From a phage, in NCBI GenBank assembly GCA_012212665.1, contig GCA_012212665.1_4517.1: a stretch of 64,000 nt of DNA. The stretch is one strand, 5' to 3'. The stretch's first letter is position 1; each line of letters opens with the position of its first letter. This document shows positions 1-51,361 of the stretch, piece after piece. The notes below the pieces were generated by a model that was not told the DNA's origin, made no database searches, and saw nothing but the letters and a program-made list of their open reading frames with translations. Position numbers and translations under genes: made by a program.

Positions 1-657
1 ATTATTCGTGTAGGTAATCAGGAAAACGGTTACGACCCACAAGCTGTATATGAATTCCATCATAACGGTACTTTTTATGCTCCAAGCTTACTTAAGAGCA
101 GTAGAGTATCAGCTGGTGGTGGTGACCCTGCATGGGGCGGGCCGTGTATTGTACTTGGAGATAACGATACCGGTTTGCTTTGGGAAAACGATGGTATTTT
201 CAACGCATATGCAAACGGCCAAGGTGTGTTTAGTTTTAGACCTGGTTTAGCTCAGACATTCGGTGATGTTAACTTCCACTGTAATGCAGGTATGTATGTT
301 CGTGATAACATTGATGTTAACGACGTTTATATTCGTTCTGATATTCGTTGTAAGTCGGAAATTAAGCTTATTAAGAACGCTCAAGAGAAATCTAAACTAT
401 TGGGCGGTTATACTTATCTGCTTAAAAACTCTGTTACAGACGAAGTTAAACCGTCCGCAGGTTTAATTGCTCAGGAAGTTCAAGAAGTATTACCTGAACT
501 TGTTTCTGAAGATAAAGAGACCGGACTGCTTCGTTTGAACTATAACGGTATTATTGGTTTAAATACAGCTGCAATAAACGAGCATACAGATGAAATCAAG
601 GAATTGAAATCTGAAATTACCGAATTGAAAGCATTAATTAAATCATTGATAAAATAA
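1..657 (+). CDS. 37: Long tail fibre distal subunit gp37, C-terminal part (5' end lies upstream of the window)
   Basis: Frame 1 is open from base 1 to the stop at 657; C-terminal motif GLIAQEVQEVLPELV followed by a coiled coil resembles tail-fibre intramolecular chaperone domains; immediately precedes gene 38. Confidence 0.6.
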   Translation: MIRVGNQENGYDPQAVYEFHHNGTFYAPSLLKSSRVSAGGGDPAWGGPCIVLGDNDTGLLWENDGIFNAYANGQGVFSFRPGLAQTFGDVNFHCNAGMYVRDNIDVNDVYIRSDIRCKSEIKLIKNAQEKSKLLGGYTYLLKNSVTDEVKPSAGLIAQEVQEVLPELVSEDKETGLLRLNYNGIIGLNTAAINEHTDEIKELKSEITELKALIKSLIK

Positions 658-662
658 TAAAA

Positions 663-676
663 GGGCCTTCGGGCCC
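663..676 (+). other. GC-rich hairpin GGGCC-UUCG-GGCCC between genes 37 and 38
   Basis: Perfect 5-bp stem with UUCG tetraloop directly upstream of the gene 38 Shine-Dalgarno (GGAGG); no U-tract follows. Confidence 0.5.
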
Positions 677-687
677 TGGAGGTTTAT

Positions 688-1467
688 ATGGCAGTAGTAG
701 GAATCCCTGGTTGGATTGGGACTTCAGCCGTTGCTGAAACGGGACAAAGATGGATGACGGCTGCTTCAAGGGAACTTCGTTTAGGAAACCCTTCATGGAT
801 GTCCCAATTCGCGGGCCGTTCAAGAGAAATAATTCACACACTTGGAGCAGACCATAACTTCAACGGTCAATGGTTCCGAGATAGATGTTTTGAGGCAGGT
901 AGTGCACCTATAGTGTTTAATATCACCGGAAATTTGGTATCATATAGTAAAGATGTTCCATTATTCTTTATGTATGGCGATACGCCAAATGAATATGTTA
1001 CTTTGAATATTCATGGTGGAGTTCATATGTGGGGACGAGGTGGTAACGGTACTGTAAACGGAAACCCAGGCACTAATGGTGGCGATGTAATCCAAAATGA
1101 TATCGGCGGAAGACTTCGTATTTGGAACTATGGTGTTATTGCATCAGGCGGTGGCGGAGGTGGTGCAGTGTCATTACAGAATAGCTGGGCGCCAAATGCT
1201 ACAGCAGGTGGCGGTGGTGGTAGACCATTTGGCATCGGCGGAGGTGGCGTTAATTGGCCGGGTGGTAATGCTAGTTATGACGCCCCGGGCGGGGCCGGTT
1301 ACACTTCCCAATTCGGCGGAGGCAATGGCGGTGATGCTGGAGGTCGTGGCGGAGATGGATGGGGTAATCACTTATCTAGATCTGGCGGTGGTGCTCCTGG
1401 CAGAGCAGTATTCGGAAGTTCACCGTCATGGGGTGCTACAGGCACAATCTACGGCTCCTGGATTTAA
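688..1467 (+). CDS. 38: Tail-fibre adhesin gp38, T2-type receptor-recognition protein with glycine-rich motifs
   Basis: 259 aa with multiple poly-Gly blocks ([30 protein letters not shown]) typical of T2-like gp38 adhesins; follows gene 37; GGAGG Shine-Dalgarno. Confidence 0.65.
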
Positions 1468-1485
1468 ACGATAATACCTCTCAAT

Positions 1486-1493
1486 TATAAATA
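1486..1493 (+). promoter_or_regulatory. Late promoter (TATAAATA) upstream of holin t
   Basis: Exact TATAAATA about 20 nt upstream of the t start codon; T4 late promoter consensus recognised by gp55. Confidence 0.6.
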
Positions 1494-1512
1494 TTGATAA
1501 ATGGGAGGTAAT

Positions 1513-2172
1513 ATGGCAGCACCAAAAGTATCATTTTCGCCTAGTGATATTTTATTTGGGTTGCTAGACCGCATTTTCAAAGATAACGCCTCTGGAAATA
1601 TTCTTATTTCAAGAGTTGCTGTTGTAGTTCTTTTGTTCCTAATGGCACTAATATGGTACAAAGGGAATATTTTTATGGATTATTACGTGAGGTCGAAATA
1701 TGATACTTACACAGAAGTAATTCAAAAAGAAAGAAATACACGATTTGAATCTGCGGCTTTAGAACAACTACAAATAGTCCACGTCACATCAAGGGCGGAT
1801 TTTAGTTCGGTGTATTCTTTCAGACCTAAAAATCTAAATTATTTCGTCGACCTTATTGCGTATGAAGGTAAGTTACCTAGCACAGTAACTGAAAAATCTA
1901 TGGGAGGATTTCCTGTTGATAAAACGACAGCAGAATATTCGGTCCATTTAAGTGGACTTCACTTTACTTCTAAAACAGATTTTGCTTTCTTACCTACCAA
2001 ATCAAAAACTCCGGAACTGGCGTATATGTATAGTTGTCCTTACTTCAATTTGGATAACATATATGCGGGAACTGTTTCTATGTATTGGTATAAGGGATCG
2101 GATGTGCTAAATGAAGAACGCTTGGCTGCAATATGCAACCAAGCAGCAAGGATATTAGGGCGGGCTAAATAA
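1513..2172 (+). CDS. t: Holin t (lysis timing protein)
   Basis: Strong similarity to T4 holin T (MAAP..SFSPSDILFG..RVAVV..FRPKNLNYFVD..MYSCPYFNLDNIYAG); start taken at the second ATG, which has a GGGAGG Shine-Dalgarno. Confidence 0.9.
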   Translation: MAAPKVSFSPSDILFGLLDRIFKDNASGNILISRVAVVVLLFLMALIWYKGNIFMDYYVRSKYDTYTEVIQKERNTRFESAALEQLQIVHVTSRADFSSVYSFRPKNLNYFVDLIAYEGKLPSTVTEKSMGGFPVDKTTAEYSVHLSGLHFTSKTDFAFLPTKSKTPELAYMYSCPYFNLDNIYAGTVSMYWYKGSDVLNEERLAAICNQAARILGRAK

Positions 2173-2445
2173 TTAGTTGTTAGAATACATCGCTAAATGA
2201 CGATAAATATTTTCAAAACCTTCATTGAATTCACTAATCAGTGTTTTCTTTTCTTCGGCAGTTAAATTTGTAATTAGTTTTCTGAACGAATTCTGATTTA
2301 GCTGCCGACCATCTTTTTTAATTCCAATCTCATTCAAGAATCCGATGAAATTTGCTCGGTCTTCAACAATATCTTCCCTAGAGAATTTAATCAAAATAGA
2401 AGCAATAGTAATAATTTCACGTACGATTTCAATGTCTTTATTCAT
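2173..2445 (-). CDS. asiA: Anti-sigma-70 factor AsiA
   Basis: 90 aa, near-identical to T4 AsiA (MNK.I..VREIIT.ASILIKFSREDIVE.RANFI.FLNEIG...NEGFE). Confidence 0.9.
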   Translation of the reverse strand: MNKDIEIVREIITIASILIKFSREDIVEDRANFIGFLNEIGIKKDGRQLNQNSFRKLITNLTAEEKKTLISEFNEGFENIYRHLAMYSNN

Positions 2446-2491
2446 AACGTTTTATTCATTCCACTTAATTGTTAGGAGTATAGTACCATTA

Positions 2492-2707
2492 TCAGTGTTG
2501 ATTGTAAACGGCTTTTTCTACGCTTTTAACGTAATCAATGTAGTCTTCCTGTTCGTACGAGTGTAAGGCTAAGAACGAGGCCAATAGTTCATTATAGATT
2601 AAAGCCTCACGCTCACGTTCGGCCTCTACTACGTTCTGAAGATTATGACTCATATTGTTCCTTATAACTATCAATGTAGTCCTGTATGTCAAAGAACGAC
2701 ATTTCAT
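2492..2707 (-). CDS. Hypothetical small protein
   Basis: ORF of 71 aa in the asiA-motA interval; start uncertain; partly overlaps the neighbouring ORF. Confidence 0.3.
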   Translation of the reverse strand: MKCRSLTYRTTLIVIRNNMSHNLQNVVEAEREREALIYNELLASFLALHSYEQEDYIDYVKSVEKAVYNQH

Positions 2708-2942
2708 ATTCTAGGACATTAAGAGCCCGTTCTTCAGTATAGTCAGAACCAAAGACGATAGTGATTTCACCAGGCTTCATATGATTGAAATCAACGCTAA
2801 AAGGAATACGAGAACATACTTCGTCTGCCATATCTACGATAACACTACGATACACTTCTCGGTTAACCTGATAAAGCTCTGCAAGTTCTTCACATCGAAT
2901 AACAAGTTCAGTGGCAGGATTTTCTTTGATTTTAGTAAACAT
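2643..2942 (-). CDS. Hypothetical acidic protein, possibly Arn-like anti-restriction protein
   Basis: Position next to asiA as for T4 arn; acidic C-terminus (EYEMSFFDIQDYIDSYKEQYES); start taken at an internal Met. Confidence 0.35.
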   Translation of the reverse strand: MFTKIKENPATELVIRCEELAELYQVNREVYRSVIVDMADEVCSRIPFSVDFNHMKPGEITIVFGSDYTEERALNVLEYEMSFFDIQDYIDSYKEQYES

Positions 2943-3025
2943 AGTCTTTACCCTTATGTTTTTGTTTACGCTTAGATTGAAGTTCTGATTTCTTCTTGTC
3001 CTTATGGACAGAAGCCTTATTGAAA

Positions 3026-3509: not shown

Positions 3510-3970
3510 TAATAAAGGTCCTCTGAATAAAGTTCTTTCTCACTTCCGCCACGTTCAATACGTACCTGTCCAGCATACGTTGCAATAATCATTGCTTCTT
3601 CCCGCGTCCAGTAATTAGAGTATTGGTCGATAAAGCCTTGGTCGTCACCACAAACTTGTTGCGAGACTAATTGAGGACCAACTATATCAAGTACTTCAGC
3701 CATATCTTTAGAGTAATGACGAACTCCAGGAATAACCAGAGTTCCACCGCTCTTCAATTTAAACCTATTAGCTGCACATACTATAACACGTTGAACTTTT
3801 TGGTCGTTATTCCAATAGCACGTTTGCCAACAGATTTCAGGAACTTCATTCATTATATCATCAGCAGAATAATTATAACCGTAGGACTGGAATTTTTCTG
3901 CTAGACTTTCAGGAGTCTCACGAGACAAGGCCAAATCTAATAGCTCTAAACGTTCTTTAAATGATTTCAT
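3509..3970 (-). CDS. Hypothetical protein
   Basis: ORF of 153 aa; stop/start overlap with flanking ORFs suggests translational coupling. Confidence 0.45.
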
Positions 3971-12388: not shown

Positions 12389-13489
12389 TTACGCTGTGAA
12401 GATTTTATCCCACATCGCAACAACTGCATCTCGGTTATACTTCTTCCATACGGCTTCAGCACGTTTAACTCGAGCTTCGTATGTGTCAGTGAATTCTAAT
12501 ACAGCTTTTGTGTAAAGCGCAACTACTTCTTTCTTAGGAGTAGAGGAATCAATTTCTACACGCACAGTATCTGGGTCATATTCGAATGTCGCGTGCGGAT
12601 AATCCTTAAAAACTAACTGAATCACAGGGACACCTTTAGAGATGGCTTCAATAGAACTATTCTCTACCGTACCCGTGTCAGGACACGTATTGATAAGTGC
12701 TTTAGCTGTTTTAAGACGTTCCATGATTTCACTGTGTGGAGCATCAATAATAACAGGATACTTAGCCGGTGGTGCCCATTTACTAGGACAGTATCCTGCA
12801 CCATTTTCGCCTAGTGCTTTAATCGCTTCAAGAGCAACATCAGTACGACGCATTTTAGTGTCATAACGTTGTGCACTAATAATCAGATCAGTCGCCGGAA
12901 GAACTTCAGGTTTCTCATTCAAACAAATAACCGGATAATCTTCGGCTTCAAACAACGGATTTGCTCGCCAATAATCATAATCAATTTTGTCAGTCAGACC
13001 TGAAGTCATATAACAATATTTGCGTTCAAATTCACGGAAGGCTTTAGTAGGAGCATAACTCTTACCACCGTTCTTATGAATTTGAATAGTCTGGTCCCAA
13101 ATTTGAACAATGCCACGAGATACCGGTTCAAATGGTGTTGCCATAAAATTCTTATGAACTTTAGAGAGACCTGCGTCTTTAATTGCCTGAACGGTTAGTT
13201 TGGTCGGTTCCATTGTAACAACGAAATCGTACTCATTAATGCCGGCTAGTTCAACAATCTTACGAGCCATAGTATAACTCATACCTAGACTGAATTTAGT
13301 CAGATGACCAACAGGATGATGATTAACCTTCCAATCACCAAATGTGTCATTATCAAAACCGATATAATCAATATCGGCACCGATAGAAACTAAATATTTC
13401 AACACATTTAAATGTACTGCTTCAAGACCACCTTGTACACGTTCAGGATTAAATGGGACTGCACGAGATGGGATAAACATAACTTTCAT
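12389..13489 (-). CDS. GT-B fold glycosyltransferase (GT4-like), candidate DNA sugar transferase
   Basis: 366 aa; C-terminal motif TGTVENSSIEAISKGVPVI resembles the E-x7-E / EAxxxGxPVI signature of GT4 glycosyltransferases; lies between rIIA and gene 39. Confidence 0.6.
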   Translation of the reverse strand: MKVMFIPSRAVPFNPERVQGGLEAVHLNVLKYLVSIGADIDYIGFDNDTFGDWKVNHHPVGHLTKFSLGMSYTMARKIVELAGINEYDFVVTMEPTKLTVQAIKDAGLSKVHKNFMATPFEPVSRGIVQIWDQTIQIHKNGGKSYAPTKAFREFERKYCYMTSGLTDKIDYDYWRANPLFEAEDYPVICLNEKPEVLPATDLIISAQRYDTKMRRTDVALEAIKALGENGAGYCPSKWAPPAKYPVIIDAPHSEIMERLKTAKALINTCPDTGTVENSSIEAISKGVPVIQLVFKDYPHATFEYDPDTVRVEIDSSTPKKEVVALYTKAVLEFTDTYEARVKRAEAVWKKYNRDAVVAMWDKIFTA

Positions 13490-15371: not shown

Positions 15372-15397
15372 ATTCTATCATCCGAAATCTAAAGCAA
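15372..15397 (-). promoter_or_regulatory. MotA-dependent middle promoter upstream of gene 39
   Basis: Minus strand TTGCTTTAG (MotA box) -12 nt- TAGAAT; same module as at 49498..49522. Confidence 0.6.
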
Positions 15398-33526: not shown

Positions 33527-34075
33527 TTAACGAGCCCATTTGATGATTTCTGTAATCAAACCATTACGTTCGCTTGCATTAAATCCTATAACTTTGTTAG
33601 CACCATCATGATTAAGTAATTGATATGTTTGGATTTTGTTATGAATTGCAAACTCTTCAAAATGTGAAATGACTGTATTAAAACCGAATGAAGACAAAGT
33701 AATAAGGTCGTCTTCAAAACTTTCAGTCATTTCATTACGTGTTAAAATAATTGTGAACACATCATGGTTTTGGCAAAGACGAACATAGTCCTGTTCATAA
33801 ACGTCAAGAACCGAGTCCGCATCTTGTCGAATACGTCCATAAACCCAGTTACTAATATATCCACGGTCTAACAGATAAATCTTAGTAGGGTCTAAATAAT
33901 TCAACATCGTTTCGAAACAGCCAACTTCATTTCGAGACTTAACATCGAAACGTCCATCAACTGTTCGTTTAGGGAAATCAATCTTTACATATCTTTCACT
34001 AATTTCCATTATGTCATTAATGAAAGTTGTTTTACCAGCATTATCTGGGCCGTCTACTAAAATAATTTTAGCCAT
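33527..34075 (-). CDS. P-loop nucleotide/nucleoside kinase-like protein (thymidylate kinase / dNK fold)
   Basis: 182 aa; Walker A GPDNAGKTT and LLDRGYIS (DRY/DRH-like) motif; part of the uvsX-43 insertion. Confidence 0.5.
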   Translation of the reverse strand: MAKIILVDGPDNAGKTTFINDIMEISERYVKIDFPKRTVDGRFDVKSRNEVGCFETMLNYLDPTKIYLLDRGYISNWVYGRIRQDADSVLDVYEQDYVRLCQNHDVFTIILTRNEMTESFEDDLITLSSFGFNTVISHFEEFAIHNKIQTYQLLNHDGANKVIGFNASERNGLITEIIKWAR

Positions 34076-34076
34076 T

Positions 34077-34976
34077 TTATTCCTCGATTACGACATCTTC
34101 GTATTTAGGTATATTATACGGTGAAGAAATTAAAGCATTAAAGTAGATGAACTCACCAAGACCTGGATGGAATACTTCTTCAGGATTTTCGAAATATTGA
34201 ATCTTCGGACGTCCTTTAAGAATTTGATAGTACTCAGTTTTAGTTGGATTAAAAATTCGAATCAGCGCTTCTTCAGGATACTTATTTCTGTCGAAGCTAT
34301 TATTTGGATCGGTTATATAAAGCGGTTGACCTAATTGAATTGCACATTCAACCACTTGTTCAAAACGATAACATGGGTCACTAATTCGAAATGGATGAAA
34401 AATACCATCTAGATGAATAGGAGCCAAATCACCTACAAGACGCTGCATGATGGAAGGACGTATAACTTTCTGAGTTACGATAATCTTATTACCATCTGCA
34501 CCTGCGTTAACCAGCACTTCCTTTTGACGTTCATTCAACACAGTAGTTTGAAGTGAACGATTAACTGACAACATATCGGTTTTTAAGAATTCATCAATAT
34601 AAAAGCGTGGTTTATTAGGGTCTGCAGTGATATTGAAATTGAATTCTACGTCAAAAGCGCCATCATATCCAGTGATATCTGTGATTAGAAAATCACAATC
34701 ATAATAAGCAATTAATGAATCAACAACAAATTCATTTTCAGACCAGAAATATTTACGAGTGTTATACGCGTTATCTTTATACCATAATGGAACAAACTTA
34801 AATTCTGGGAAAAGACGTTCACATTCTTTAATATCAGATGCATTACGTGGATATGTAATCACATCACCCGGATTAGCACGGTGCAAATGAAGTTGGAAGT
34901 TGCCATCCTTAAGGATAGCATACTGTCCAGTTTCATAAGACCGCATACTCAAGATTGGTACGCGGAAAATAGCCAT
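34077..34976 (-). CDS. Hypothetical protein at the T4 beta-gt locus; candidate modification transferase
   Basis: 299 aa, no recognisable motif; occupies the position of beta-glucosyltransferase between uvsX and gene 42. Confidence 0.4.
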   Translation of the reverse strand: MAIFRVPILSMRSYETGQYAILKDGNFQLHLHRANPGDVITYPRNASDIKECERLFPEFKFVPLWYKDNAYNTRKYFWSENEFVVDSLIAYYDCDFLITDITGYDGAFDVEFNFNITADPNKPRFYIDEFLKTDMLSVNRSLQTTVLNERQKEVLVNAGADGNKIIVTQKVIRPSIMQRLVGDLAPIHLDGIFHPFRISDPCYRFEQVVECAIQLGQPLYITDPNNSFDRNKYPEEALIRIFNPTKTEYYQILKGRPKIQYFENPEEVFHPGLGEFIYFNALISSPYNIPKYEDVVIEE

Positions 34977-35692
34977 TAGTCAAGGAATCCTTTAACATAA
35001 TCAAAATCACGTTCAAACACATGGGCACTTACCATGGTATGAGTATAATCACCAACTTCTACACCGCATTCGTTAGCGATATAATGAAGTAATTTTCCTT
35101 GGAGATAAAAATCCAACTGCATAACAACAGCACAGTTCTGAGAACGCATATGGCAGTGGGTATAAAGCTTACCATCACGAATATAATAAGTCACTGAGTC
35201 AGTACATGGATATTCAAGTGTTTCGTCCGAATCAAGCAAAGCCTGATCAGAACTTTCTAGAATTTGGAACACAACTCTTCGAGAGTTAGGTTTCTCTTTA
35301 AGTTCTTTTAGAAGAGCTGGTAATTGGGCCGCAATGCGAGGACCATAGAAAGTGTTGAAGTTCGCCGGCAAAGCGTCTGATTTAGGTTTAGAAATAAATT
35401 TAGCGACATTAGGATATGCCTTAAACGCTTCTTCTGCATCAGTACCACCAGAAATCATAAACTTCCAGAAGTCTTCGGCATATTCATAAGAGATGCGGTT
35501 AATACGTGGGTCGGTCATTTTGAATGATGATGGATTGTCAACAACTACTGTCATGGACCCAATTTCATTACAACGTCCAATACGAGAATCAGTTACGAAT
35601 TCAGGGTTTTCTAAAATTTCACGATTGACTGCTTTAAATGCGGTTTGAAAATCTGCGGCTTTGATATATTTCATTGTGTTATGTTTTCCCAT
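34976..35692 (-). CDS. 42: dCMP hydroxymethylase gp42 (thymidylate synthase family)
   Basis: 238 aa; active-site region YPCTDSVTYYIRDGKL...HMRSQN aligns with T4 gp42 (FMCTNTVQYLIRD...NMRSND). Confidence 0.85.
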   Translation of the reverse strand: MGKHNTMKYIKAADFQTAFKAVNREILENPEFVTDSRIGRCNEIGSMTVVVDNPSSFKMTDPRINRISYEYAEDFWKFMISGGTDAEEAFKAYPNVAKFISKPKSDALPANFNTFYGPRIAAQLPALLKELKEKPNSRRVVFQILESSDQALLDSDETLEYPCTDSVTYYIRDGKLYTHCHMRSQNCAVVMQLDFYLQGKLLHYIANECGVEVGDYTHTMVSAHVFERDFDYVKGFLD

Positions 35693-35734: not shown

Positions 35735-35974
35735 TTATTTGAATTTCTTGGCAATGTTGATATAACGTAAAGCTTCAGAATCTATACTTCCAAGAACACT
35801 ATGAAGGAATGCATCAGTGTAGTATTCCAATTGAACAGGTTCTTTAATCACTTTAGCCGCTTTGGTTTCAAACAGGCCCATAAGGGCCTTTTTAAGAATT
35901 TGTTCGTTAGTGTTCAGTTTCATAGTCAAAATCTCTTCGTTAAGTTTATAATTAAAACTTTTTCTAGAAATCAT
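35735..35974 (-). CDS. Hypothetical protein (imm position, but not hydrophobic)
   Basis: ORF of 79 aa between gene 42 and the Cys-rich protein. Confidence 0.4.
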   Translation of the reverse strand: MISRKSFNYKLNEEILTMKLNTNEQILKKALMGLFETKAAKVIKEPVQLEYYTDAFLHSVLGSIDSEALRYINIAKKFK

Positions 35975-37131
35975 TCCGGGTACCTCAAAGCGTCATCAGA
36001 GTTAGTTATATCAATAATAGATATGGAGTTTTCTGCTAACCCGTTTTTAGATAATTGACGTTTATAATACCTTTCACAATATGTACACGTTGACCCACAG
36101 ATTTCATTAGCACAATCAAAATCTGGGTGTCTGAACCACCTTTTTTCTAAAAAGCCATCTAACAAAGAGGTTTCAATATTTACTGTATGTGAAAACTCAG
36201 TCTCATTTTCAAGAGTGAAAATAGTCTCTAAAGGCTTCCACAGTTCTAACAAATTACCTTCAAACTTTTCAGAAGCGTATGCTTCAAGAACTTTCAAAAT
36301 GTAGTCTGTGCTACCTGTACGTCCTGAAACTTTGAATTGAGTGATACCAATATCATTATAAAGTTTCAAATCTTGAGGACGAACAAAACGAGTTCTCAAC
36401 CAGTTAAATGGGTCTGTATCACGAGCTTTAATACAGTGCTGCATAGGATATCCATTTAAGGATTTAGCATCGTCAGCGGTAACATCAGTACTATGGAAAA
36501 TATAGCAAGAGTCACGATAGCTACAATGTGTTGTATACCCTTTACCAGCATTAGAACAGAACTCATTTACAAGAACTTCAAATATTATATTGTTCTTATT
36601 GCAAAACTCTGCTGCACGCTTCAGGAAAGAAACTGAACGGTTCTTATGAATTCCGCAGCAGACCTTTTTGATGTTATATTGGTCATGTAAGTATTTGATT
36701 TGAGTTACAGCATCGACATGTAGAATTGTTGAAACTTCAATCTCAATATCTTTATTGACTTCACGAACAATTTCCATAACAACAGGGTTAGCGATAGTAA
36801 TACGCCATACGCCTATTGACCAAAGATACTGAACATAATCCTGAATAGCTTTCTTCTTCCACTCAACTAGTTCTCTTTTTGAACCAGGATTTATCGTGTT
36901 GAGTGTATAGTTAAAGCAAATACCTAATTCGTTACAACGTTTAACGTAGTCTTCTAACATCTTTTTGTCAACGTCAGGAAGCCTAAAATCAGGTCTGGCT
37001 GCTACAAAAGCCATTTCTCTTGTAGAGCCATATACTTCGTTTATCAAGCTATTAGGATAGGTTTTATTGAGCTCTACGATTTTATCAAGAAGAGCTAAAT
37101 CAAAATTCGTTCCGATTTTAAAAGTATTCAT
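35971..37131 (-). CDS. Cys-rich putative metalloenzyme (possible peptidase U32-like / Fe-S protein)
   Basis: 386 aa; C-terminal CANEICGSTCTYC cluster (C-x4-C-x3-C-x2-C) and EVLVNEFCSNAGKG block loosely resembling the U32 family signature; assignment tentative. Confidence 0.45.
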   Translation of the reverse strand: MNTFKIGTNFDLALLDKIVELNKTYPNSLINEVYGSTREMAFVAARPDFRLPDVDKKMLEDYVKRCNELGICFNYTLNTINPGSKRELVEWKKKAIQDYVQYLWSIGVWRITIANPVVMEIVREVNKDIEIEVSTILHVDAVTQIKYLHDQYNIKKVCCGIHKNRSVSFLKRAAEFCNKNNIIFEVLVNEFCSNAGKGYTTHCSYRDSCYIFHSTDVTADDAKSLNGYPMQHCIKARDTDPFNWLRTRFVRPQDLKLYNDIGITQFKVSGRTGSTDYILKVLEAYASEKFEGNLLELWKPLETIFTLENETEFSHTVNIETSLLDGFLEKRWFRHPDFDCANEICGSTCTYCERYYKRQLSKNGLAENSISIIDITNSDDALRYPE

Positions 37132-37191
37132 TTTTTTTGCATCTCGCGTTAATTGATGCGATGGTTTTTTTTGCAGGTCTTACTTAAATTA

Positions 37192-37593
37192 TTATAGATT
37201 CGGTTTATACGATTTAAATGTTTCGAATTCGCCTTTATTCATAAGAGCTTTGAATTCGTCAGGACGCATAGCTTTGTCGTCGATAATCCAATCATATACT
37301 GGTTTATGTGTTAGCAAATTATGGTACTTCAAGCCAATGTTTGCCAAGTTCTGAATCAGACTTGGGAGAATGTCAATTGCTATACGACCAGGACCTACTG
37401 ACTTCATACCGCGAGCAGTGTAAAGCGTTATGGTATGCCCTGCATCATACAGGGCATTAATGGCGGTCACCATTTCGACGTCTGGTTTGAAGTTCACATA
37501 ATCACGATTGTTATTCCACTCTGTTATACAATCATCGACATCAAAACAAAGATTAAGCATGTTTTCTACACGGTGCATTAGATTCGTTCCCAT
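37192..37593 (-). CDS. HAD-superfamily phosphatase (KdsC-like small sugar-phosphate phosphatase)
   Basis: 133 aa; motif I FDVDDCIT (DxDx[TV]) near the N-terminus. Confidence 0.55.
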   Translation of the reverse strand: MGTNLMHRVENMLNLCFDVDDCITEWNNNRDYVNFKPDVEMVTAINALYDAGHTITLYTARGMKSVGPGRIAIDILPSLIQNLANIGLKYHNLLTHKPVYDWIIDDKAMRPDEFKALMNKGEFETFKSYKPNL

Positions 37594-39266
37594 TGATGAG
37601 TGATATCGCCACCGATTGGACGATAGGAAACACCAGTTTCTTTATCAGTTAGTACCCATTTACCAGGATTTTTTGTAATCAGAGTAGCCGTTACAGGTTC
37701 TGCTACGTCATAACTAATAGAGCCGTCTTGAAGTACACGGCCCATGTTACGTAATTGCTTAGTCAGAAGTTCCATACCTTTATAATATGCGGCAACCGCT
37801 TTAAGTGGATTATTCTTGAAATAACCACCTAATGCAATCCAGATAATTGCTACTGCCAAATGATGATACTCGTTAAACGAACTCATCTTTCCATATTTGT
37901 AAACTAATGGATTGATGTTAATAGTCACATTACAAGTTGTTTCATCAATAGTAAACTGACCCCAGGTCGGATTAGCATTGAATTCATCATAACCTGAAAC
38001 AGCATAAAGCACTTTAGCTTCATCATACAATTTTGGCCCGTAAATCTTGGTTTCACCAAAATATCCACGAGGGTCGATAAACTTGACTTCGCCGTTATCG
38101 GTAATCATAGTATTACTGAAGTTCGGGTCACCATGAATAACAGAGTACTGTCCCTGAGAACGGTTATGATAACGAATAAGATGTTCTAAAGCTTGTTTCA
38201 ACATTGGCTTCAGACGTCCAATCTTAGTGTAGTTCACATGTGTGATTTTACCAAATGAATCAATCAATGGCTGAATGCTTTCACAACGATCAATAACTTT
38301 CGTATAGAACTCTTTAGTGAAATCACGGCGAACAGTTTCAGGACTTACAAAATAAGTGTCCGTGCTGAATTTCAGTGCATCTAAAATTGCATCAACAATT
38401 TGTGGACGAGCAAGACTTGATTTGGATTTAATATATTCAAATGCCGGCTTACCTTTAATGCGTTCCATAATAAAGTGGCCGCCAGGATGATAACTTACAA
38501 TCCGTGGAACTGAATCTGATTTAACTTTCTTATACCAATTGACTTCATCTTTTTGAAGTGCAACGCCCTGTTCTGTTAAAGCAATCTTTGTTACAGTTTC
38601 TTCGCCAATTTCAACTGCATTAAAACTACGATTCAGTTCACGAACTTCATGAGCCTTTTCAAGTTTAGGCATATCACCTAAATCAATTAGATTCATAAGC
38701 TCTGATTTATTGAATGCACTGCCGTAAAGGAATTCTACGAAATCACGACCTTTGCAGTATTCGTGAATTTCCTCATCAGTAGAACCCATGTAGAATTCCC
38801 AGTCTTTGAACTGATAAATTCCTACAACATTACCACCTGTTGAACCTACGTTAGTGATATTTTCACCATCGAAATTATATCGACATTCATCACCCTTAAC
38901 ATAGATTGCGTTAACATTCCAAGACCATGAACCAAAGTCAGGAATAATATCACACCAGTTAACAATTACGTTATGGCCATCTAAATCTTTGTATAATTTA
39001 GCAAGAGCATAAGCAGAACCATACGCTTCATCAACTGTACGAATAGTCACATTGAACCCTTCTTGCTCGCAATAAGCTCGAACAGTTTCAGCAAATTTTG
39101 AATGAACTACTACAATAATTTCATCTGCGCCAAGGTCAGAATAAATTGTATACAAATTGCTCAGAATAGTGTCTTGTTTATAGTTAACAAGCACCTTAGG
39201 AATATGGTGCGTTATTGGATACAAACGAGTTGCCAGTCCAGCACCAAGAATAACAGCTTTTTTCAT
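37578..39266 (-). CDS. Bifunctional sugar-1-phosphate nucleotidyltransferase / anomeric sugar kinase (APH/choline-kinase fold)
   Basis: 562 aa; N-terminus KAVILGAGLATRLYPIT (G-x-G-T-R-L nucleotidyltransferase); C-terminus VIHGDPNFSN...FIDPRGYFG (APH/ChoK catalytic motifs). Confidence 0.7.
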   Translation of the reverse strand: MKKAVILGAGLATRLYPITHHIPKVLVNYKQDTILSNLYTIYSDLGADEIIVVVHSKFAETVRAYCEQEGFNVTIRTVDEAYGSAYALAKLYKDLDGHNVIVNWCDIIPDFGSWSWNVNAIYVKGDECRYNFDGENITNVGSTGGNVVGIYQFKDWEFYMGSTDEEIHEYCKGRDFVEFLYGSAFNKSELMNLIDLGDMPKLEKAHEVRELNRSFNAVEIGEETVTKIALTEQGVALQKDEVNWYKKVKSDSVPRIVSYHPGGHFIMERIKGKPAFEYIKSKSSLARPQIVDAILDALKFSTDTYFVSPETVRRDFTKEFYTKVIDRCESIQPLIDSFGKITHVNYTKIGRLKPMLKQALEHLIRYHNRSQGQYSVIHGDPNFSNTMITDNGEVKFIDPRGYFGETKIYGPKLYDEAKVLYAVSGYDEFNANPTWGQFTIDETTCNVTININPLVYKYGKMSSFNEYHHLAVAIIWIALGGYFKNNPLKAVAAYYKGMELLTKQLRNMGRVLQDGSISYDVAEPVTATLITKNPGKWVLTDKETGVSYRPIGGDITHQWERI

Positions 39267-39307
39267 GTTGTGGTCCTCATTGGTAAGTAGGTGTATCGTA
39301 CACTATT

Positions 39308-39451
39308 CTAGTTAAAGCATTCATACTTTGCTTGTAGTCCAATCATAATCCATCCGATTATAAGAGTCGGAATCATTACTGGAGCCGTTAAGCTCCAGTA
39401 GATAGTCATGACAAGCATCAATAGTAAAAGTCCTATTGTTATTGCTTTCAT
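39308..39451 (-). CDS. Small hydrophobic peptide (47 aa)
   Basis: Unannotated ORF MKAITIGLLLLMLVMTIYWSL...; its ATG overlaps the TGA of the SIS gene (ATGA). Confidence 0.3.
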   Translation of the reverse strand: MKAITIGLLLLMLVMTIYWSLTAPVMIPTLIIGWIMIGLQAKYECFN

Positions 39452-40083
39452 TGTTCGCCTCGTAACATGGCACCTAGTGCACCACCAGGGTGGAACTTAA
39501 GGAAGTCATTAGAGGTAAATCCACGTTCAGACGAAAGGTTGATAGCAAACGTATCGATAAGCGCTAACAACAATGTAGTGGACATGGTCGGAGCCAGAGA
39601 ATTCTCATCAACCTCTACCGCGATGCCTGTACAGAACGTATAATCAAAAAGAGCTTCGTATTCTTGCGGAATGTCAGGGTTACAATGTAACAGAATCTGT
39701 TTAACCTGAGGACGAATCATACGAAGATGTTTAGCAACACCTATCATTTCTTCAGTCTTACCAGAACGACTGATGTGAACTAATACATCATTAGGCGCAA
39801 TGAATCCTGCATCACCGTGAGAATAATGCCCGGTGTTCAAATACATGCTAGGAATACCTAGTGAAGCAAAAGTCTCGGAAGCTTTAGTTGCGATATTAGC
39901 GTTCTTACCAACACCTGTAATAATTACTCGGCTTTCATAATTACTCAGTCCAGGGCGACGAAGAGTTTCAAGAATAGCATTATATCGGGCAGAGTTTTGA
40001 CTAATTACTTTAGCCATAGTGGCAAGAGATGAAGCTTGTTTTACGATTGCGTCAATAGCGATAGTGATTGGTGTAGTTTTCAT
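39448..40083 (-). CDS. SIS-domain sugar-phosphate isomerase, arabinose-5-phosphate isomerase (KdsD/GutQ)-like
   Basis: 211 aa; motifs ITGVGKNANIA, HGDAG, SRSGKTEE, APTMSTT, FHPGGALG align with the KdsD SIS domain; no CBS domains. Confidence 0.75.
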   Translation of the reverse strand: MKTTPITIAIDAIVKQASSLATMAKVISQNSARYNAILETLRRPGLSNYESRVIITGVGKNANIATKASETFASLGIPSMYLNTGHYSHGDAGFIAPNDVLVHISRSGKTEEMIGVAKHLRMIRPQVKQILLHCNPDIPQEYEALFDYTFCTGIAVEVDENSLAPTMSTTLLLALIDTFAINLSSERGFTSNDFLKFHPGGALGAMLRGEQ

Positions 40084-48229: not shown

Positions 48230-48458
48230 TACACGCTTCAGCCATTTTAAGAATAGAGCCAGGAGTATCGTTGTCCATTATATTAAAGCTAAATTCAATA
48301 GCCCAGTCGGTACAGACATGAACGGCTTTAACTTCATTGCCTTCAACGCGTAACGGCTCAATCCAATACTTGATAGTGTTCTCGAATCCATCATCATCTT
48401 TAACGTCTATTTCAACTTCAAGCCCAAGCCCAGCATTGTTAAATTCATCTAAAGTCAT
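48201..48458 (-). CDS. Hypothetical acidic protein
   Basis: ORF of 85 aa. Confidence 0.45.
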   Translation of the reverse strand: MTLDEFNNAGLGLEVEIDVKDDDGFENTIKYWIEPLRVEGNEVKAVHVCTDWAIEFSFNIMDNDTPGSILKMAEACIEDAYNNED

Positions 48459-49474
48459 TGTGTTGCCTCAATATAAAGTTCGTTGGAATATTTGACCAGC
48501 GCTTCTCTGTCTTCGTCTGAGATATCTGGAATCGCGTCAATATATTCTTTAATGATATCTTGAAGTGATTTAATCTCGATTTCCTGGTCGTCATCAGATT
48601 CAACACTGTTATCAACTTTAGAAACCATACGAAGAGAGTGAACTACTTTTTCAAGTTCAGATTCAAACTTAGTCAACTCTGAATCAATTTCTGATACTAT
48701 AACACGTACGGCTAGATTAGTATAATCAGAATAATTGATTTTGCCTTTAAATGGATAAGTGATTCGTCGATGCCATGTCGTTTCATTAGGAATAAATTCC
48801 ATACGTTCAACATCAGTGTCAAATACCCAGAATCCACGTGGGTCGTTCTCGTCACCTGCAGTAAGGGTCCATGGTGTCCCAATATATTTGACGTTAGCAG
48901 CTTCAGAGATTGTGTGGAAGTGGCCGGACCAGACTTGTTTATAGGTCTTTAAGAAATCAGGTTCAAGCCCATGAGACTTCATTCCTTTATAGAAATAAAA
49001 GCCATTCAGTTCCCAGTGCCCAACACAATACGCAGCAGAAGAAGTCTTGATATGCTCTAAGATTTCACCTGTATTTTCTTCACACATCCATGGAACGATA
49101 TCAATCAGACATCCATCAAAATCTACAGTAGTTGGATGTTCGTAAATAGTAAAGTTTTCAAATTGAGTTAACAATTCAGAAACAGTGTTAGGTGTTATTG
49201 TATTCTTAAACGCCATGTCATGGTTTCCTATCGTGACATGAACGTGAATGCCTGCTTTAGAAATCATATCAACGATTTCACGATTGAATTCCATTGTACG
49301 ATGTGTTATTGCTTTACGGACGTCGAACCAATCACCGTACTGAATCCAAGTTTTAATCCCGTGTTTCTTAGAGTATTCAATTGCTTGACGAATACCATCA
49401 CGTTGAATATCTTGAACCCATGGGTCATCTTGTTTGACTCCGATATGGAAGTCTCCTAAGTGCAAAATTTTCAT
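48455..49474 (-). CDS. 47: Recombination nuclease subunit gp47 (Mre11/SbcD-like phosphoesterase)
   Basis: 339 aa; calcineurin-like motifs (HLGDFH, GNHD, GHFH). Confidence 0.9.
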   Translation of the reverse strand: MKILHLGDFHIGVKQDDPWVQDIQRDGIRQAIEYSKKHGIKTWIQYGDWFDVRKAITHRTMEFNREIVDMISKAGIHVHVTIGNHDMAFKNTITPNTVSELLTQFENFTIYEHPTTVDFDGCLIDIVPWMCEENTGEILEHIKTSSAAYCVGHWELNGFYFYKGMKSHGLEPDFLKTYKQVWSGHFHTISEAANVKYIGTPWTLTAGDENDPRGFWVFDTDVERMEFIPNETTWHRRITYPFKGKINYSDYTNLAVRVIVSEIDSELTKFESELEKVVHSLRMVSKVDNSVESDDDQEIEIKSLQDIIKEYIDAIPDISDEDREALVKYSNELYIEATQ

Positions 49475-49497
49475 ATTATTTCCTCATTAGTTAATTC

Positions 49498-49522
49498 ATT
49501 CTATCATCCGTTTATAAAGCAA
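49498..49522 (-). promoter_or_regulatory. MotA-dependent middle promoter upstream of gene 47
   Basis: Minus strand TTGCTTTAT (MotA box) -11 nt- TAGAAT; GGATGATAGAAT identical to the gene 39 middle promoter. Confidence 0.6.
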
Positions 49523-49544
49523 AAAAGGAACTCCGAAGAGTTCC
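49513..49544 (-). terminator. Intrinsic terminator overlapping the MotA box
   Basis: Minus-strand hairpin GGAACUC-UUCG-GAGUUCC followed by UUUUUUGCUUU. Confidence 0.6.
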
Positions 49545-49717
49545 TATCCACATAGTACACCGTACAGAGGCTCATTTGGACTTTTAAATCGAATGGGCTT
49601 GTACGTAATAGTTCCTTCGGCTTTAGCTTTATCATAAGACTCTTTAAAACGTCTCATTCTTTCTGCTTTGCCTTTACGGATTTTATCGAAATTTTCAGAA
49701 GTCGGGATGTTCATCAT
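49544..49717 (-). CDS. Small hypothetical basic protein (57 aa)
   Basis: Unannotated ORF with GAGAGGTG Shine-Dalgarno-like sequence; its stop abuts the terminator hairpin. Confidence 0.3.
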   Translation of the reverse strand: MMNIPTSENFDKIRKGKAERMRRFKESYDKAKAEGTITYKPIRFKSPNEPLYGVLCG

Positions 49718-49756
49718 GCATAAGCACCTCTCGGAAAATGCCTAAATCGATTTCTC

Positions 49757-49978
49757 TCATCGTTTCCACCATTTCTTAACTTGAAATGAATCAACCCACA
49801 CGAGTTGTTTTGGGTCTGCCTTTACAATAGGCGGACAAATTTCTGTAATAGAACCGTCGTGATATTCCTTTTCAGAAATTTTAACACAAAGAGGACCACC
49901 CAATTTAACGGTGAACCCTGCGTTCAGCTTCAGACGTTTAAACTTTGTTTGAACTAGCGCCATTAATGATGTCCTCAA
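49757..49978 (-). CDS. Hypothetical protein
   Basis: ORF of 73 aa in the interval where T4 carries alpha-gt. Confidence 0.4.
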   Translation of the reverse strand: MRTSLMALVQTKFKRLKLNAGFTVKLGGPLCVKISEKEYHDGSITEICPPIVKADPKQLVWVDSFQVKKWWKR

Positions 49979-50261
49979 TAGCCTGACGAGTAGTAACCCA
50001 CTGGATTTTAATTAACTTGTCATTATATGGTTGTCGTAGAATATCCCGAGATTTCTTAATAGCGTATTCGTAAGCTTCGAAGTTGTTTTGAATTGCTGCT
50101 TCTTGAGCATGAGCATAAAGACGGTTTAGTTCAAAACGATTCTTTTTAAGAATCTTTTCGGATTTTTTACGTGCTTCAGCTTCGTTTTTCTTTTGGATTT
50201 CTTGTAGCATTTTAGCTACTGCATCTTCTGCTTCTTTATTTTCAATAATCTCGGTAGTCAT
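49938..50261 (-). CDS. Hypothetical protein
   Basis: ORF of 107 aa, Lys/Glu-rich, in the alpha-gt interval. Confidence 0.45.
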   Translation of the reverse strand: MTTEIIENKEAEDAVAKMLQEIQKKNEAEARKKSEKILKKNRFELNRLYAHAQEAAIQNNFEAYEYAIKKSRDILRQPYNDKLIKIQWVTTRQAIEDIINGASSNKV

Positions 50262-50262
50262 A

Positions 50263-50478
50263 TTATCTCATTAAATTAAAATAAAAACGTCCGTCCTCTT
50301 CAATACAGAACTCGTACTCAACTGGAGTCCCATTTATCGAAAATGACACGTCATGTGGGTTCAAAGGGTCGATGTCAAAATTAATTTTAAATTCTCGGCC
50401 CAACAGTTTTACCAAATAAGGGATTGCTTCGTCAAAAGGTTCTTCTAAGTAGTTAGAGATGTCAATTGTCATCCTCAT
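50263..50478 (-). CDS. Hypothetical protein
   Basis: ORF immediately downstream of gene 55; start placed at an internal Met to limit overlap. Confidence 0.4.
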
Positions 50479-51037
50479 ATAAAAAATCCAAACTAGGTGA
50501 ATCGCTAACAACTTCCTTCTTTTCAGCCCCAGGAGCTTTATAAGCGGATTCTTCATAATGCGTCATTTTATCGTAGATGTCTTGAATAAACGTTTCATCT
50601 ACCAACGCTACCATATCATCGTCATGACTGTCGTAGACATTATGAACGAAGTAACTATATTTCTTTGCAACTTCCTTACGTTCTTTTTTGATACGTTGGA
50701 CAAAAGCATTAAAACAAGCTCGAGTTATGTATGCATGTGGGTTATTGTACTTAGTTTCGTCGAAATTATGAAGTCCCTTAATAGAGGCTTCAATCCCATC
50801 TGCAATCATCTCCTGCTTCCAAGACTGGGTATATCCTGAAAAGTTGAAACGTTTGGACAGGCCTTCGGCGATAAGCATAATTGCTAAACCGATGGTATCA
50901 TTCTGACGAATAATTTTGTTTGGGTCTTTATTATTTAAGAGCTCCTTTTTCCACTCGATTATAGCAGCGAGAAGCTCTTTATTATTCACATAGTTATTTT
51001 TAGGTTTTTGTTCAGTCATAAGTACCTCTTGGCTCAA
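50462..51037 (-). CDS. 55: Late sigma factor gp55
   Basis: 191 aa; long identical blocks to T4 gp55 ([77 protein letters not shown]). Confidence 0.92.
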
Positions 51038-51091
51038 TTCATAGGTCTATTATATCATAATATTTAGAGACCTATCTTAAAGCACGAGATA

Positions 51092-51361
51092 CTATCGGAG
51101 CAAACAATAAGCCTGAAACACTTTTTCCATTAAACGTTTGAACTCATGGATATCGATATAAAGCTCAGTAAGACCGGCGTTATAAAGAAAATCTAAAAAG
51201 TTCTCATGTGTTTCGTTATAGTCGCCTTCGTTTAATTGAGATACATGAGATTCCCAAAAACCGACACCTTTAACAAATGGAAAATACGTAACTTTCATAA
51301 AGTTGTCGACGTAAAATTCGCCCAGCTTTTCTTCAGTTATACTGATTCGAGTTAATTTCAT
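51092..51361 (-). CDS. Hypothetical protein (55.x)
   Basis: ORF of 89 aa. Confidence 0.45.
   Translation of the reverse strand: MKLTRISITEEKLGEFYVDNFMKVTYFPFVKGVGFWESHVSQLNEGDYNETHENFLDFLYNAGLTELYIDIHEFKRLMEKVFQAYCLLR

Follow-up and report, generated by a model that had tools for sequence, protein, structure and literature searches.

The segment between gene 55, which encodes the late sigma factor, and gene 47, which encodes a subunit of the gp46/47 recombination nuclease, is where phage T4 carries its alpha-glucosyltransferase gene (alpha-gt). We examined this segment in a 64,000-nucleotide (nt) stretch of phage DNA (GenBank assembly GCA_012212665.1, contig GCA_012212665.1_4517.1), hereafter the window, in which a first-pass annotation had described the alpha-gt locus as empty and replaced by small open reading frames (ORFs). 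A megablast search with positions 48400-51100 matched 707 phage records and showed the source to be a Mosigvirus, an RB69-like relative of the T-even phages; the closest record, Enterobacteria phage ATK47 (Mosigvirus atk47), is 99.9% identical over the full query. The locus is collinear, as a single piece covering at least 80% of the 2.7-kb query, in 147 Mosigvirus-type records, nearly all of them 95-99% identical. The 47-55 interval itself occupies 49475-50461 (987 nt), with gene 55 as its upstream boundary and gene 47 as its downstream boundary in the direction of transcription. The locus contains the following features.

48455-49474, minus strand: gene 47, SbcD-like subunit of the gp46/47 recombination nuclease, 339 amino acids (aa); PHROG 100, E 1.6e-135; 76% identical to T4 gp47.
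49498-49524, minus strand: MotA-dependent middle-promoter-like element (pattern match), with the Mot box TTT-TGCTTTA at 49524-49515 and, after a spacer of 11 nt, the -10 hexamer TAGAAT at 49503-49498.
49545-49526, minus strand: hairpin AGGAACTC-TTCG-GAGTTCCT with a cUUCGg tetraloop, an 8-bp stem and a T run at 49525-49521; -13.9 kcal/mol, z = -4.0.
49544-49717, minus strand: a-gt.2 orthologue, 57 aa; 74% identical to T4 a-gt.2, E 1.4e-23 (tblastn); Pfam DUF5486, E 5e-27.
49757-49963, minus strand: a-gt.3 orthologue, 68 aa; 71% identical to T4 a-gt.3, E 2e-29 (tblastn); PHROG 1648.
49938-50261, minus strand: a-gt.4 orthologue, 107 aa; 58% identical to T4 a-gt.4, E 2.5e-32 (tblastn); Pfam DUF2654, E 1e-27.
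50263-50478, minus strand: a-gt.5 orthologue, 71 aa; 47% identical to T4 a-gt.5, E 1e-14 (tblastn); Pfam DUF5491, E 5e-13.
50462-51019 (mechanical ORF to 51037), minus strand: gene 55, late sigma factor; PHROG 234, E 3.9e-68; 89% identical to T4 gp55.

The first-pass annotation was right about the sizes and coordinates of an interval of ~1 kb with four short ORFs (987 nt; 57, 68/73, 107 and 71 aa). Judged by sequence comparison, these ORFs are the orthologues of T4 a-gt.2, a-gt.3, a-gt.4 and a-gt.5, the conserved neighbours of alpha-gt. Their order and orientation between genes 55 and 47 are those of T4, three of the four exceed the Pfam gathering cut-offs (DUF5486, DUF2654 and DUF5491), and the RB69 GenBank record already uses the names a-gt.2 to a-gt.5. 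The assignment survived a check that T4-type genomes do carry these genes beside alpha-gt. Since the same ORFs are also present in T4, nothing has taken the place of alpha-gt, and the description of small ORFs as its replacement is incorrect. The mechanical ORF of a-gt.3 (49757-49978) has 73 aa from a TTG, and the start annotated in RB69 and ATK47 gives 68 aa. For a-gt.5, the 71-aa start aligns with residue 1 of the T4 protein and produces a 17-nt overlap with the 3' end of gene 55; the form annotated in RB69 has 69 aa. As in T4, a-gt.4 overlaps the start of a-gt.3. Transcription on the minus strand would cover the four small genes as well as gene 55.

RB69 (Mosigvirus RB69, NC_004928, RB69p066-p071) has the same genes in unchanged order (47, a-gt.2, a-gt.3, a-gt.4, a-gt.5, 55). 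Its interval is identical in length to that of the window and aligns without gaps at ~97% nucleotide identity, differing only by point substitutions that concentrate at the start of a-gt.2 and in the spacer between a-gt.3 and a-gt.2. The composition profile of the interval showed nothing anomalous (G+C 0.34-0.40, like the flanks), and an Rfam scan of 49300-50700 at E up to 1 returned zero matches. The possibility that one of the small ORFs is a cryptic glucosyltransferase was rejected on size, 57-107 aa against 280-400 aa in the known enzymes, and a literature search on a-gt.2 to a-gt.5 found no functional study of these genes.

Two irregularities were seen in public annotations of the small genes. 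Some Klebsiella phage records call homologues of a-gt.2 (e.g. locus L007, 3420-3605) 'head maturation protease', a label also attached to PHROG 17354; as the match spans only ~34 residues of the 57-aa protein, this looks like a propagated misannotation. In addition, the ATK47 RefSeq record NC_055708 (L001, 4565-4863) skips the a-gt.4 coding sequence, and the locus tag number gp158 is missing. The 107-aa a-gt.4 ORF is intact in the window (49938-50261) despite this omission and matches both T4 a-gt.4 and DUF2654.

The absence of alpha-gt from the locus, as claimed in the first-pass annotation, was confirmed. Only 69 nt separate a-gt.2 from gene 47, and tblastn with T4 alpha-gt, beta-gt, 47.1 and mobB gave no match in the window (best E 0.28; 2.4 for alpha-gt alone). 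For a genome-wide tblastn search, the window was joined to the remainder of the genome of ATK47, the nearest complete genome. This composite contained no detectable homologue of T4 alpha-gt (best E 0.054), T4 beta-gt (best E 6.3) or the RB32/T2-type beta-alpha-gt (best E 1.1). The alpha-gt match at E 0.054 (L012, 40515-40694; 69 aa) was considered as a gene remnant and rejected, as it lies inside an unrelated, T4-conserved ORF. The absence of both alpha-gt and beta-gt agrees with what Petrov et al. 2010 and Thomas et al. 2018 (PMC6024577) described for RB69.

In T4, the order is 47, 47.1, a-gt, mobB, a-gt.2, a-gt.3, a-gt.4, a-gt.5, 55 (T4 record), and the 47-55 interval is ~3.15 kb rather than 1.2 kb because it also holds 47.1, mobB and a-gt.2 to a-gt.5. 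Compared to the window, T4 has an additional ~2.2 kb in total, made up of three genes (47.1, alpha-gt and mobB, which encodes an HNH homing endonuclease) and a further hairpin/Mot-box module, while the a-gt.3/a-gt.4 and a-gt.5/55 overlaps and the hairpin and Mot-box module after a-gt.2 are shared. Most Tequatroviruses have alpha-gt 68-69 nt from a-gt.2 and no mobB (e.g. RB18, KNP5, teqskov and ESh28); compared to these, the window lacks essentially one gene and one regulatory module.

To place this arrangement among phages, tblastn with T4 alpha-gt and with the window a-gt.2 was run on 50,697 phage records. T4 alpha-gt matched 657 records. Identity was at least 80% in ~504 of them (Tequatrovirus-type hosts) and 60-80% in 143 (including 136 from Klebsiella and 4 from Raoultella), with 10 weaker matches; these numbers cannot accommodate the ~145 Mosigvirus records that a-gt.2 recovered. 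Klebsiella phage Roth79 (alpha-gt 66% identical) and Erwinia phage Cronus (56.5%) both carry it in the same slot, immediately upstream of gene 47. The window a-gt.2 matched 811 records, of which representatives were inspected. The order 55, a-gt.5, a-gt.4, a-gt.3, a-gt.2, 47 without alpha-gt was found in Gaprivervirus SP18, Dhakavirus CLB_P2, Kanagawavirus Q7622 and Klebsiella phage Biddle_MM4, and is kept in at least five lineages. Because the small genes persist in these lineages without alpha-gt, their a-gt.N names are purely positional and carry no functional meaning. Variation is restricted to one indel slot, the a-gt.2/47 junction; elsewhere in the interval, synteny holds across genera and there is almost no variation within the genus.

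A further small gene of this junction deserves mention. A 47.1-like ORF is also found in the Dhaka and Gapriver phages inspected, and Mosigvirus has no 47.1. In Shigella phage SP18, the ORF (MELFLGYVVLFMAFYTFTRACWIGFFSTPDGF...) is unannotated and lies between a-gt.2 and 47 (L004, upstream of 3863, ~3745-3866). Together with a small ORF in the same position of CLB_P2, its sequence suggests that 47.1 may be more widespread than annotated.

The 69-nt spacer of the window holds the hairpin and the promoter-like element as one compact module. The hairpin stem starts within the a-gt.2 stop codon, its T run merges into the Mot box, and a GAGGA Shine-Dalgarno sequence (49485-49481, minus strand) is followed by the gene 47 ATG. 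None of 200 shuffled sequences folds as well as the hairpin, and the ATK47 record annotates a terminator at this site. The string TGCTTTA-N11-TAGAAT (49521-49498, minus strand) fits the T4/RB69 middle-promoter consensus. Across the window, the Mot-box/-10 pattern occurs 14 times against 3.4 expected, a number reached by none of 100 shuffles; a generic sigma-70 scan (8 sites against 5.6 expected) is uninformative for a MotA-type promoter. Nolan et al. 2006 reported that RB69 has orthologues of motA and asiA as well as a Mot-box consensus, and predicted in its genome both a middle promoter, Pm:40046, which maps to 49490-49529 of the window, and a TransTerm terminator, '47<--a-gt.2' (40044-40061), which maps to 49527-49544. 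The RB69 hairpin is identical to that of the window, and its promoter differs by one base in the -10 hexamer.

In the junction alignment, T4, SP18, CLB_P2, Q7622, Biddle, Roth79 and Cronus share the succession of hairpin, T run, TGCTTTA, N11-12 and TAnAAT behind a-gt.2, so that the module is kept in 8 phages of 7 lineages, i.e. in every genus examined. A second copy (hairpin, Mot box and -10 hexamer) lies after alpha-gt in T4 and Roth79. With its fold (z = -4.0), its Mot-box pattern and this conservation, the terminator and middle-promoter module noted in the first-pass annotation is real at the level of sequence. We infer that the hairpin and promoter would be active in vivo. The hairpin may be terminator-like or RNA-stabilising: the cUUCGg stem-loop and U run would end or stabilise the upstream transcript, and the middle promoter, whose Mot box overlaps the U run, would re-initiate transcription into genes 47 and 46. 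To judge from its sequence, the module is also a promoter-middle stem-loop (PmSL) as defined, with a stem-loop, a Mot box, a -10 element 11-13 nt downstream, a Shine-Dalgarno sequence and a gene. Comeau et al. 2014 (PMC4122927), who described this class, associated it with indels in the genomes of T4-like phages.

Two observations concern the pattern elsewhere in the window. Ten of the 14 Mot-box/-10 patterns lie on the transcribed minus strand, within an overall enrichment of about four-fold. At one of the sites, 15372-15396 (minus strand), which precedes the gene 39 homologue, the spacer and the -10 element are nearly identical to those of the gene 47 promoter (TGCTTTAGATTTCGGATGATAGAAT).

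The window also contains genes for a different DNA modification. In RB69 DNA, mono- and di-arabinosylated 5-hydroxycytosine replaces cytosine, and experiments have shown that the ThyA homologue RB69 gp48 produces 5-hydroxy-dCMP (Lee et al. 2026, PMC13326640). Homologues of RB69 gp3, gp45, gp46:47, gp48, gp50, gp51, gp52:53 and gp55, the listed components of the RB69/DLP3 system (PMC6024577; PMC13326640) that belong to this region of the genome, are all present in the window and are 98-99% identical where compared.

12389-13489, minus strand: GT4-like GT-B glycosyltransferase between rIIA and gene 39, orthologue of RB69 gp3 (ORF003c); 99% identical to p003 and ~98% to PDB 9iqz/9ir0.
33527-34075, minus strand: thymidylate-kinase-like nucleotide kinase, homologue of RB69 p045; PHROG 761, E 5.7e-45; member of the modification cluster.
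34077-34976, minus strand: glycosyltransferase of predicted GT-B fold, 299 aa, orthologue of RB69 gp46:47; in the T4 beta-gt position, adjoining the gene 42 homologue.
34976-35692, minus strand: thymidylate-synthase-family enzyme, orthologue of RB69 gp48 (237/238 residues identical); 25% identical to T4 gp42; Pfam PF00303; in the T4 gene 42 position.
35971-37131, minus strand: U32-family protein (Pfam U32), proposed UDP-arabinose supply.
37192-37593, minus strand: phosphatase-like protein, proposed UDP-arabinose supply.
37578-39266, minus strand: fusion of nucleotidyltransferase and kinase (Pfam NTP_transferase), proposed UDP-arabinose supply.
39448-40083, minus strand: arabinose-5-phosphate isomerase (Pfam SIS; PHROG arabinose 5-phosphate isomerase, E 2e-116), proposed UDP-arabinose supply.

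The sugar-supply genes at 35971-40083 (minus strand) have the same order as RB69 p050-p055. The label 'gene 42 orthologue' for 34976-35692, used in older annotations and reviews, is misleading, as the product is of the ThyA family and only 25% identical to the T4 dCMP hydroxymethylase. Pfam assigned no family to either glycosyltransferase. The enzyme at 12389-13489 matches PDB entries 9iqz and 9ir0, deposited as 'Glycosyltransferase subfamily 4-like N-terminal domain-containing protein', for which a literature search found no describing paper. By analogy with RB69 (PMC6024577 and PMC13326640), it is proposed to be the second arabinosyltransferase.

The 299-aa enzyme at 34077-34976 stands in the beta-gt slot and is unrelated in sequence to beta-gt. 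Its translation corresponds to RB69 p047 (182 aa) joined to p046; the RB69 reference record splits this first glycosyltransferase into two genes, whereas the window has it whole, as one intact ORF (L010, 24597-25497). This independently supports the view of Lee et al. 2026 that the p046/p047 split is a sequencing error. Because a search of the PDB with the family profile gave only chance matches (E ~0.5), the fold was tested with AlphaFold2 and Foldseek. The model, built from a 44-sequence alignment with a predicted local distance difference test score of 94.7, matched MshA (3c4q), sucrose-phosphate synthase (6kih) and UDP-GlcNAc 2-epimerases at E ~1e-6, which predicts a GT-B fold. Lee et al. 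2026 (PMC13326640) obtained the same top structures for RB69 gp46:47, and by analogy with their proposal for RB69 the enzyme is the candidate first arabinosyltransferase.

On the strength of the sequence and the RB69 data, the DNA of the window phage probably carries RB69-type arabinosylated 5-hydroxycytosine. The phage would make 5-hydroxy-dCMP, not 5-hydroxymethyl-dCMP, through its ThyA-family enzyme, and the 5-hydroxy base would be arabinosylated by the two GT-B enzymes encoded in the beta-gt slot and between rIIA and gene 39. T4 alpha-gt adds glucose to the hydroxymethyl group of 5-hydroxymethylcytosine (hmC) (PMC6024577), and a phage without hmC would offer it no acceptor. Thus alpha-gt would be dispensable here, since there would be no hmC to accept glucose and other enzymes would arabinosylate 5-hydroxycytosine. 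The suggestion of a non-glucose modification system in the first-pass annotation is borne out by the RB69 arabinosyl-5-hydroxycytosine genes in the window and by the lack of an alpha-gt or beta-gt homologue. Its expectation that no glucosyltransferase would be found elsewhere in the genome holds for sequence homologues of alpha-gt, beta-gt and beta-alpha-gt, but at the level of fold there are remote GT-B relatives at 12389-13489 and 34077-34976. Because their RB69 orthologues are proposed arabinosyltransferases (PMC13326640), these enzymes support rather than refute a non-glucose modification.

Two observations lie outside the modification genes. At 38226-39218 of ATK47 (L011, 25227-26219, outside the window), an AroG-like phospho-2-dehydro-3-deoxyheptonate aldolase, an unusual host-like metabolic gene for a T4-like phage, is located beside the dCMP deaminase gene. 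Positions 1-3000 of the window, with plus-strand ORFs of 160, 259 and 223 aa at the tail-fibre adhesin/holin gene position, gave no blastn match at E 1e-20 to ATK47 from position 13000 on. The remaining window is 98-99.9% identical to ATK47 where compared. The missing match probably stems from divergence of the tail-fibre region and could reflect mosaicism in host-range genes; part of this stretch maps below ATK47 position 13000.

Taken together, it is very probable that the interval is the normal gene 55-gene 47 segment of a Mosigvirus, with the alpha-gt slot unoccupied and other genes modifying the DNA. The first-pass annotation had instead seen a hyperplastic region in which novel small ORFs replaced alpha-gt. 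The interval is indeed shorter than that of T4 and holds only short ORFs, and gene content does differ between genera at one point. However, the strong gene variation and many ORFans of such a region were not found: each of the four ORFs corresponds to a T4 orthologue, in unchanged order, and falls into a Pfam or PHROG family that T4-like phages have in common, the interval shows no indel against RB69 at ~97% identity, it is collinear in ~147 records, and its G+C content is that of the flanks. With the gene order kept in at least five alpha-gt-less lineages and only the a-gt.2/47 slot varying, we consider hyperplasticity highly improbable. We give equally little credence to a functional but highly diverged glucosyltransferase, e.g. 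a GT-B enzyme using UDP-glucose on the DNA of this phage. Two GT-B-fold enzymes are present in the window, and the sugar specificity of RB69 gp3 and gp46:47 is still a proposal. Nevertheless, RB69 virion DNA contains arabinosylated 5-hydroxycytosine (PMC13326640), the window enzymes are ~98-99% identical to those of RB69, and the window has a full arabinose-nucleotide supply cluster.

How the slot came to be unoccupied is less clear-cut. In a neighbour-joining tree of concatenated gp46+gp47+gp55 from 8 taxa with a midpoint root, T4 and the window phage are sisters (100% bootstrap), Biddle and Roth79 are sisters (99% bootstrap) and Cronus is outermost, so that Roth79 and Cronus, both with alpha-gt in the same slot, fall outside the T4/window pair. 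The alpha-gt identities are 66% for T4-Roth79, 56.5% for T4-Cronus and 59% for Roth79-Cronus, and the corresponding gp47 values are 70, 65 and 69%. That the divergence of alpha-gt tracks that of gp47, together with the shared slot, favours the view that alpha-gt is old and vertically inherited and that several lineages, Mosigvirus included, have lost it. On balance, the sequences incline us to think that Mosigvirus once had alpha-gt and lost it after its split from the T4 lineage. In Tequatrovirus, Roth79 and Cronus, alpha-gt fills the slot between the post-a-gt.2 module and gene 47, with its own 3' hairpin, and its loss in Mosigvirus could have occurred through recombination between the flanking hairpin/promoter repeats, i.e. 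PmSL-mediated excision, a route that we propose tentatively and rate as short of probable. The alternative is that the slot was never occupied in Mosigvirus, the order without alpha-gt being ancestral for Tevenvirinae, and that Tequatrovirus, the Roth79-like Klebsiella phages and Cronus acquired alpha-gt either by separate insertions at the PmSL or by its spread through recombination in the conserved flanks. Five of the 8 lineages sampled have no alpha-gt and are otherwise identical in synteny, presence flips between close relatives such as Biddle (without) and Roth79 (with), and PmSL/PeSL modules have been proposed as insertion and exchange points (PMC4122927). Vertical descent, by contrast, predicts what is seen in the three lineages with alpha-gt, namely exactly the same slot and a divergence roughly in step with gp47, and T4, the nearest relative of the Mosigvirus flanks, has the gene. 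We therefore give insertion into a never-occupied slot a little less than an even chance.

Several points weigh against our preferred interpretation. The tree was built from three flanking proteins and rooted at the midpoint, its deeper nodes are weak (55% bootstrap), and three losses and three gains are equally parsimonious on its 8 taxa. No remnant of alpha-gt is left in the 69-nt spacer, which is why a slot that was never occupied has to be taken seriously. Downstream of alpha-gt, Cronus has a different hairpin and no clear Mot box, so the flanking repeats are not universal. The genome-wide search includes a small unverified junction: the end of the window joins ATK47, and the first ~1.5 kb (tail-fibre genes) does not, window 1-3000 having given no ATK47 match. 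Finally, single DLP3 glycosyltransferases were inactive in vitro on 5-hydroxycytosine DNA (PMC13326640).

With loss as the favoured course, a more specific picture can be sketched, which we regard as speculative and rather doubtful as a whole. In it, alpha-gt would be a one-gene cassette bracketed, at least in T4 and Roth79, by direct PmSL repeats; Mosigvirus would have dropped it when its cytosine chemistry switched from 5-hydroxymethyl to 5-hydroxy; and a-gt.2 to a-gt.5 would be unconnected to glucosylation, serving the 55/47/46 unit or another early function. If so, recombination between the PmSL repeats would cleanly excise or insert the alpha-gt cassette, and the switch in chemistry would have taken away its acceptor.

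The features of the locus are already known or published in all essentials. The small genes, terminator and middle promoter of RB69 had been annotated or predicted by 2006 (RB69 GenBank record; Nolan 2006), the lack of alpha-gt and beta-gt in RB69-like phages had been recorded by 2010 (Petrov 2010), the alternative sugar was identified in 2018 (Thomas et al., PMC6024577), and the base and its pathway followed in 2026 (Lee et al., PMC13326640). Our analysis corrects the idea of small ORFs as replacements of alpha-gt and identifies the remote GT-B relatives elsewhere in the genome as the proposed arabinosyltransferases. We found no published statement that alpha-gt is flanked by PmSL/PeSL modules. 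The published PmSLs are from Vibrio phage nt-1, and the published PeSLs from the RB49/phi1 and PST/T4 pairs. Like the PmSL/PeSL cassettes described by Arbiol et al. 2010 (PMC2839356) and Comeau et al. 2014 (PMC4122927), the window module has a stem-loop directly upstream of a promoter, followed by a Shine-Dalgarno sequence and a gene, and, like them, it sits at an indel boundary between related genomes. The variable element of the locus is thus a single slot with a conserved hairpin/middle-promoter module, which fits the published cassette-shuffling model for T4-like genomes.

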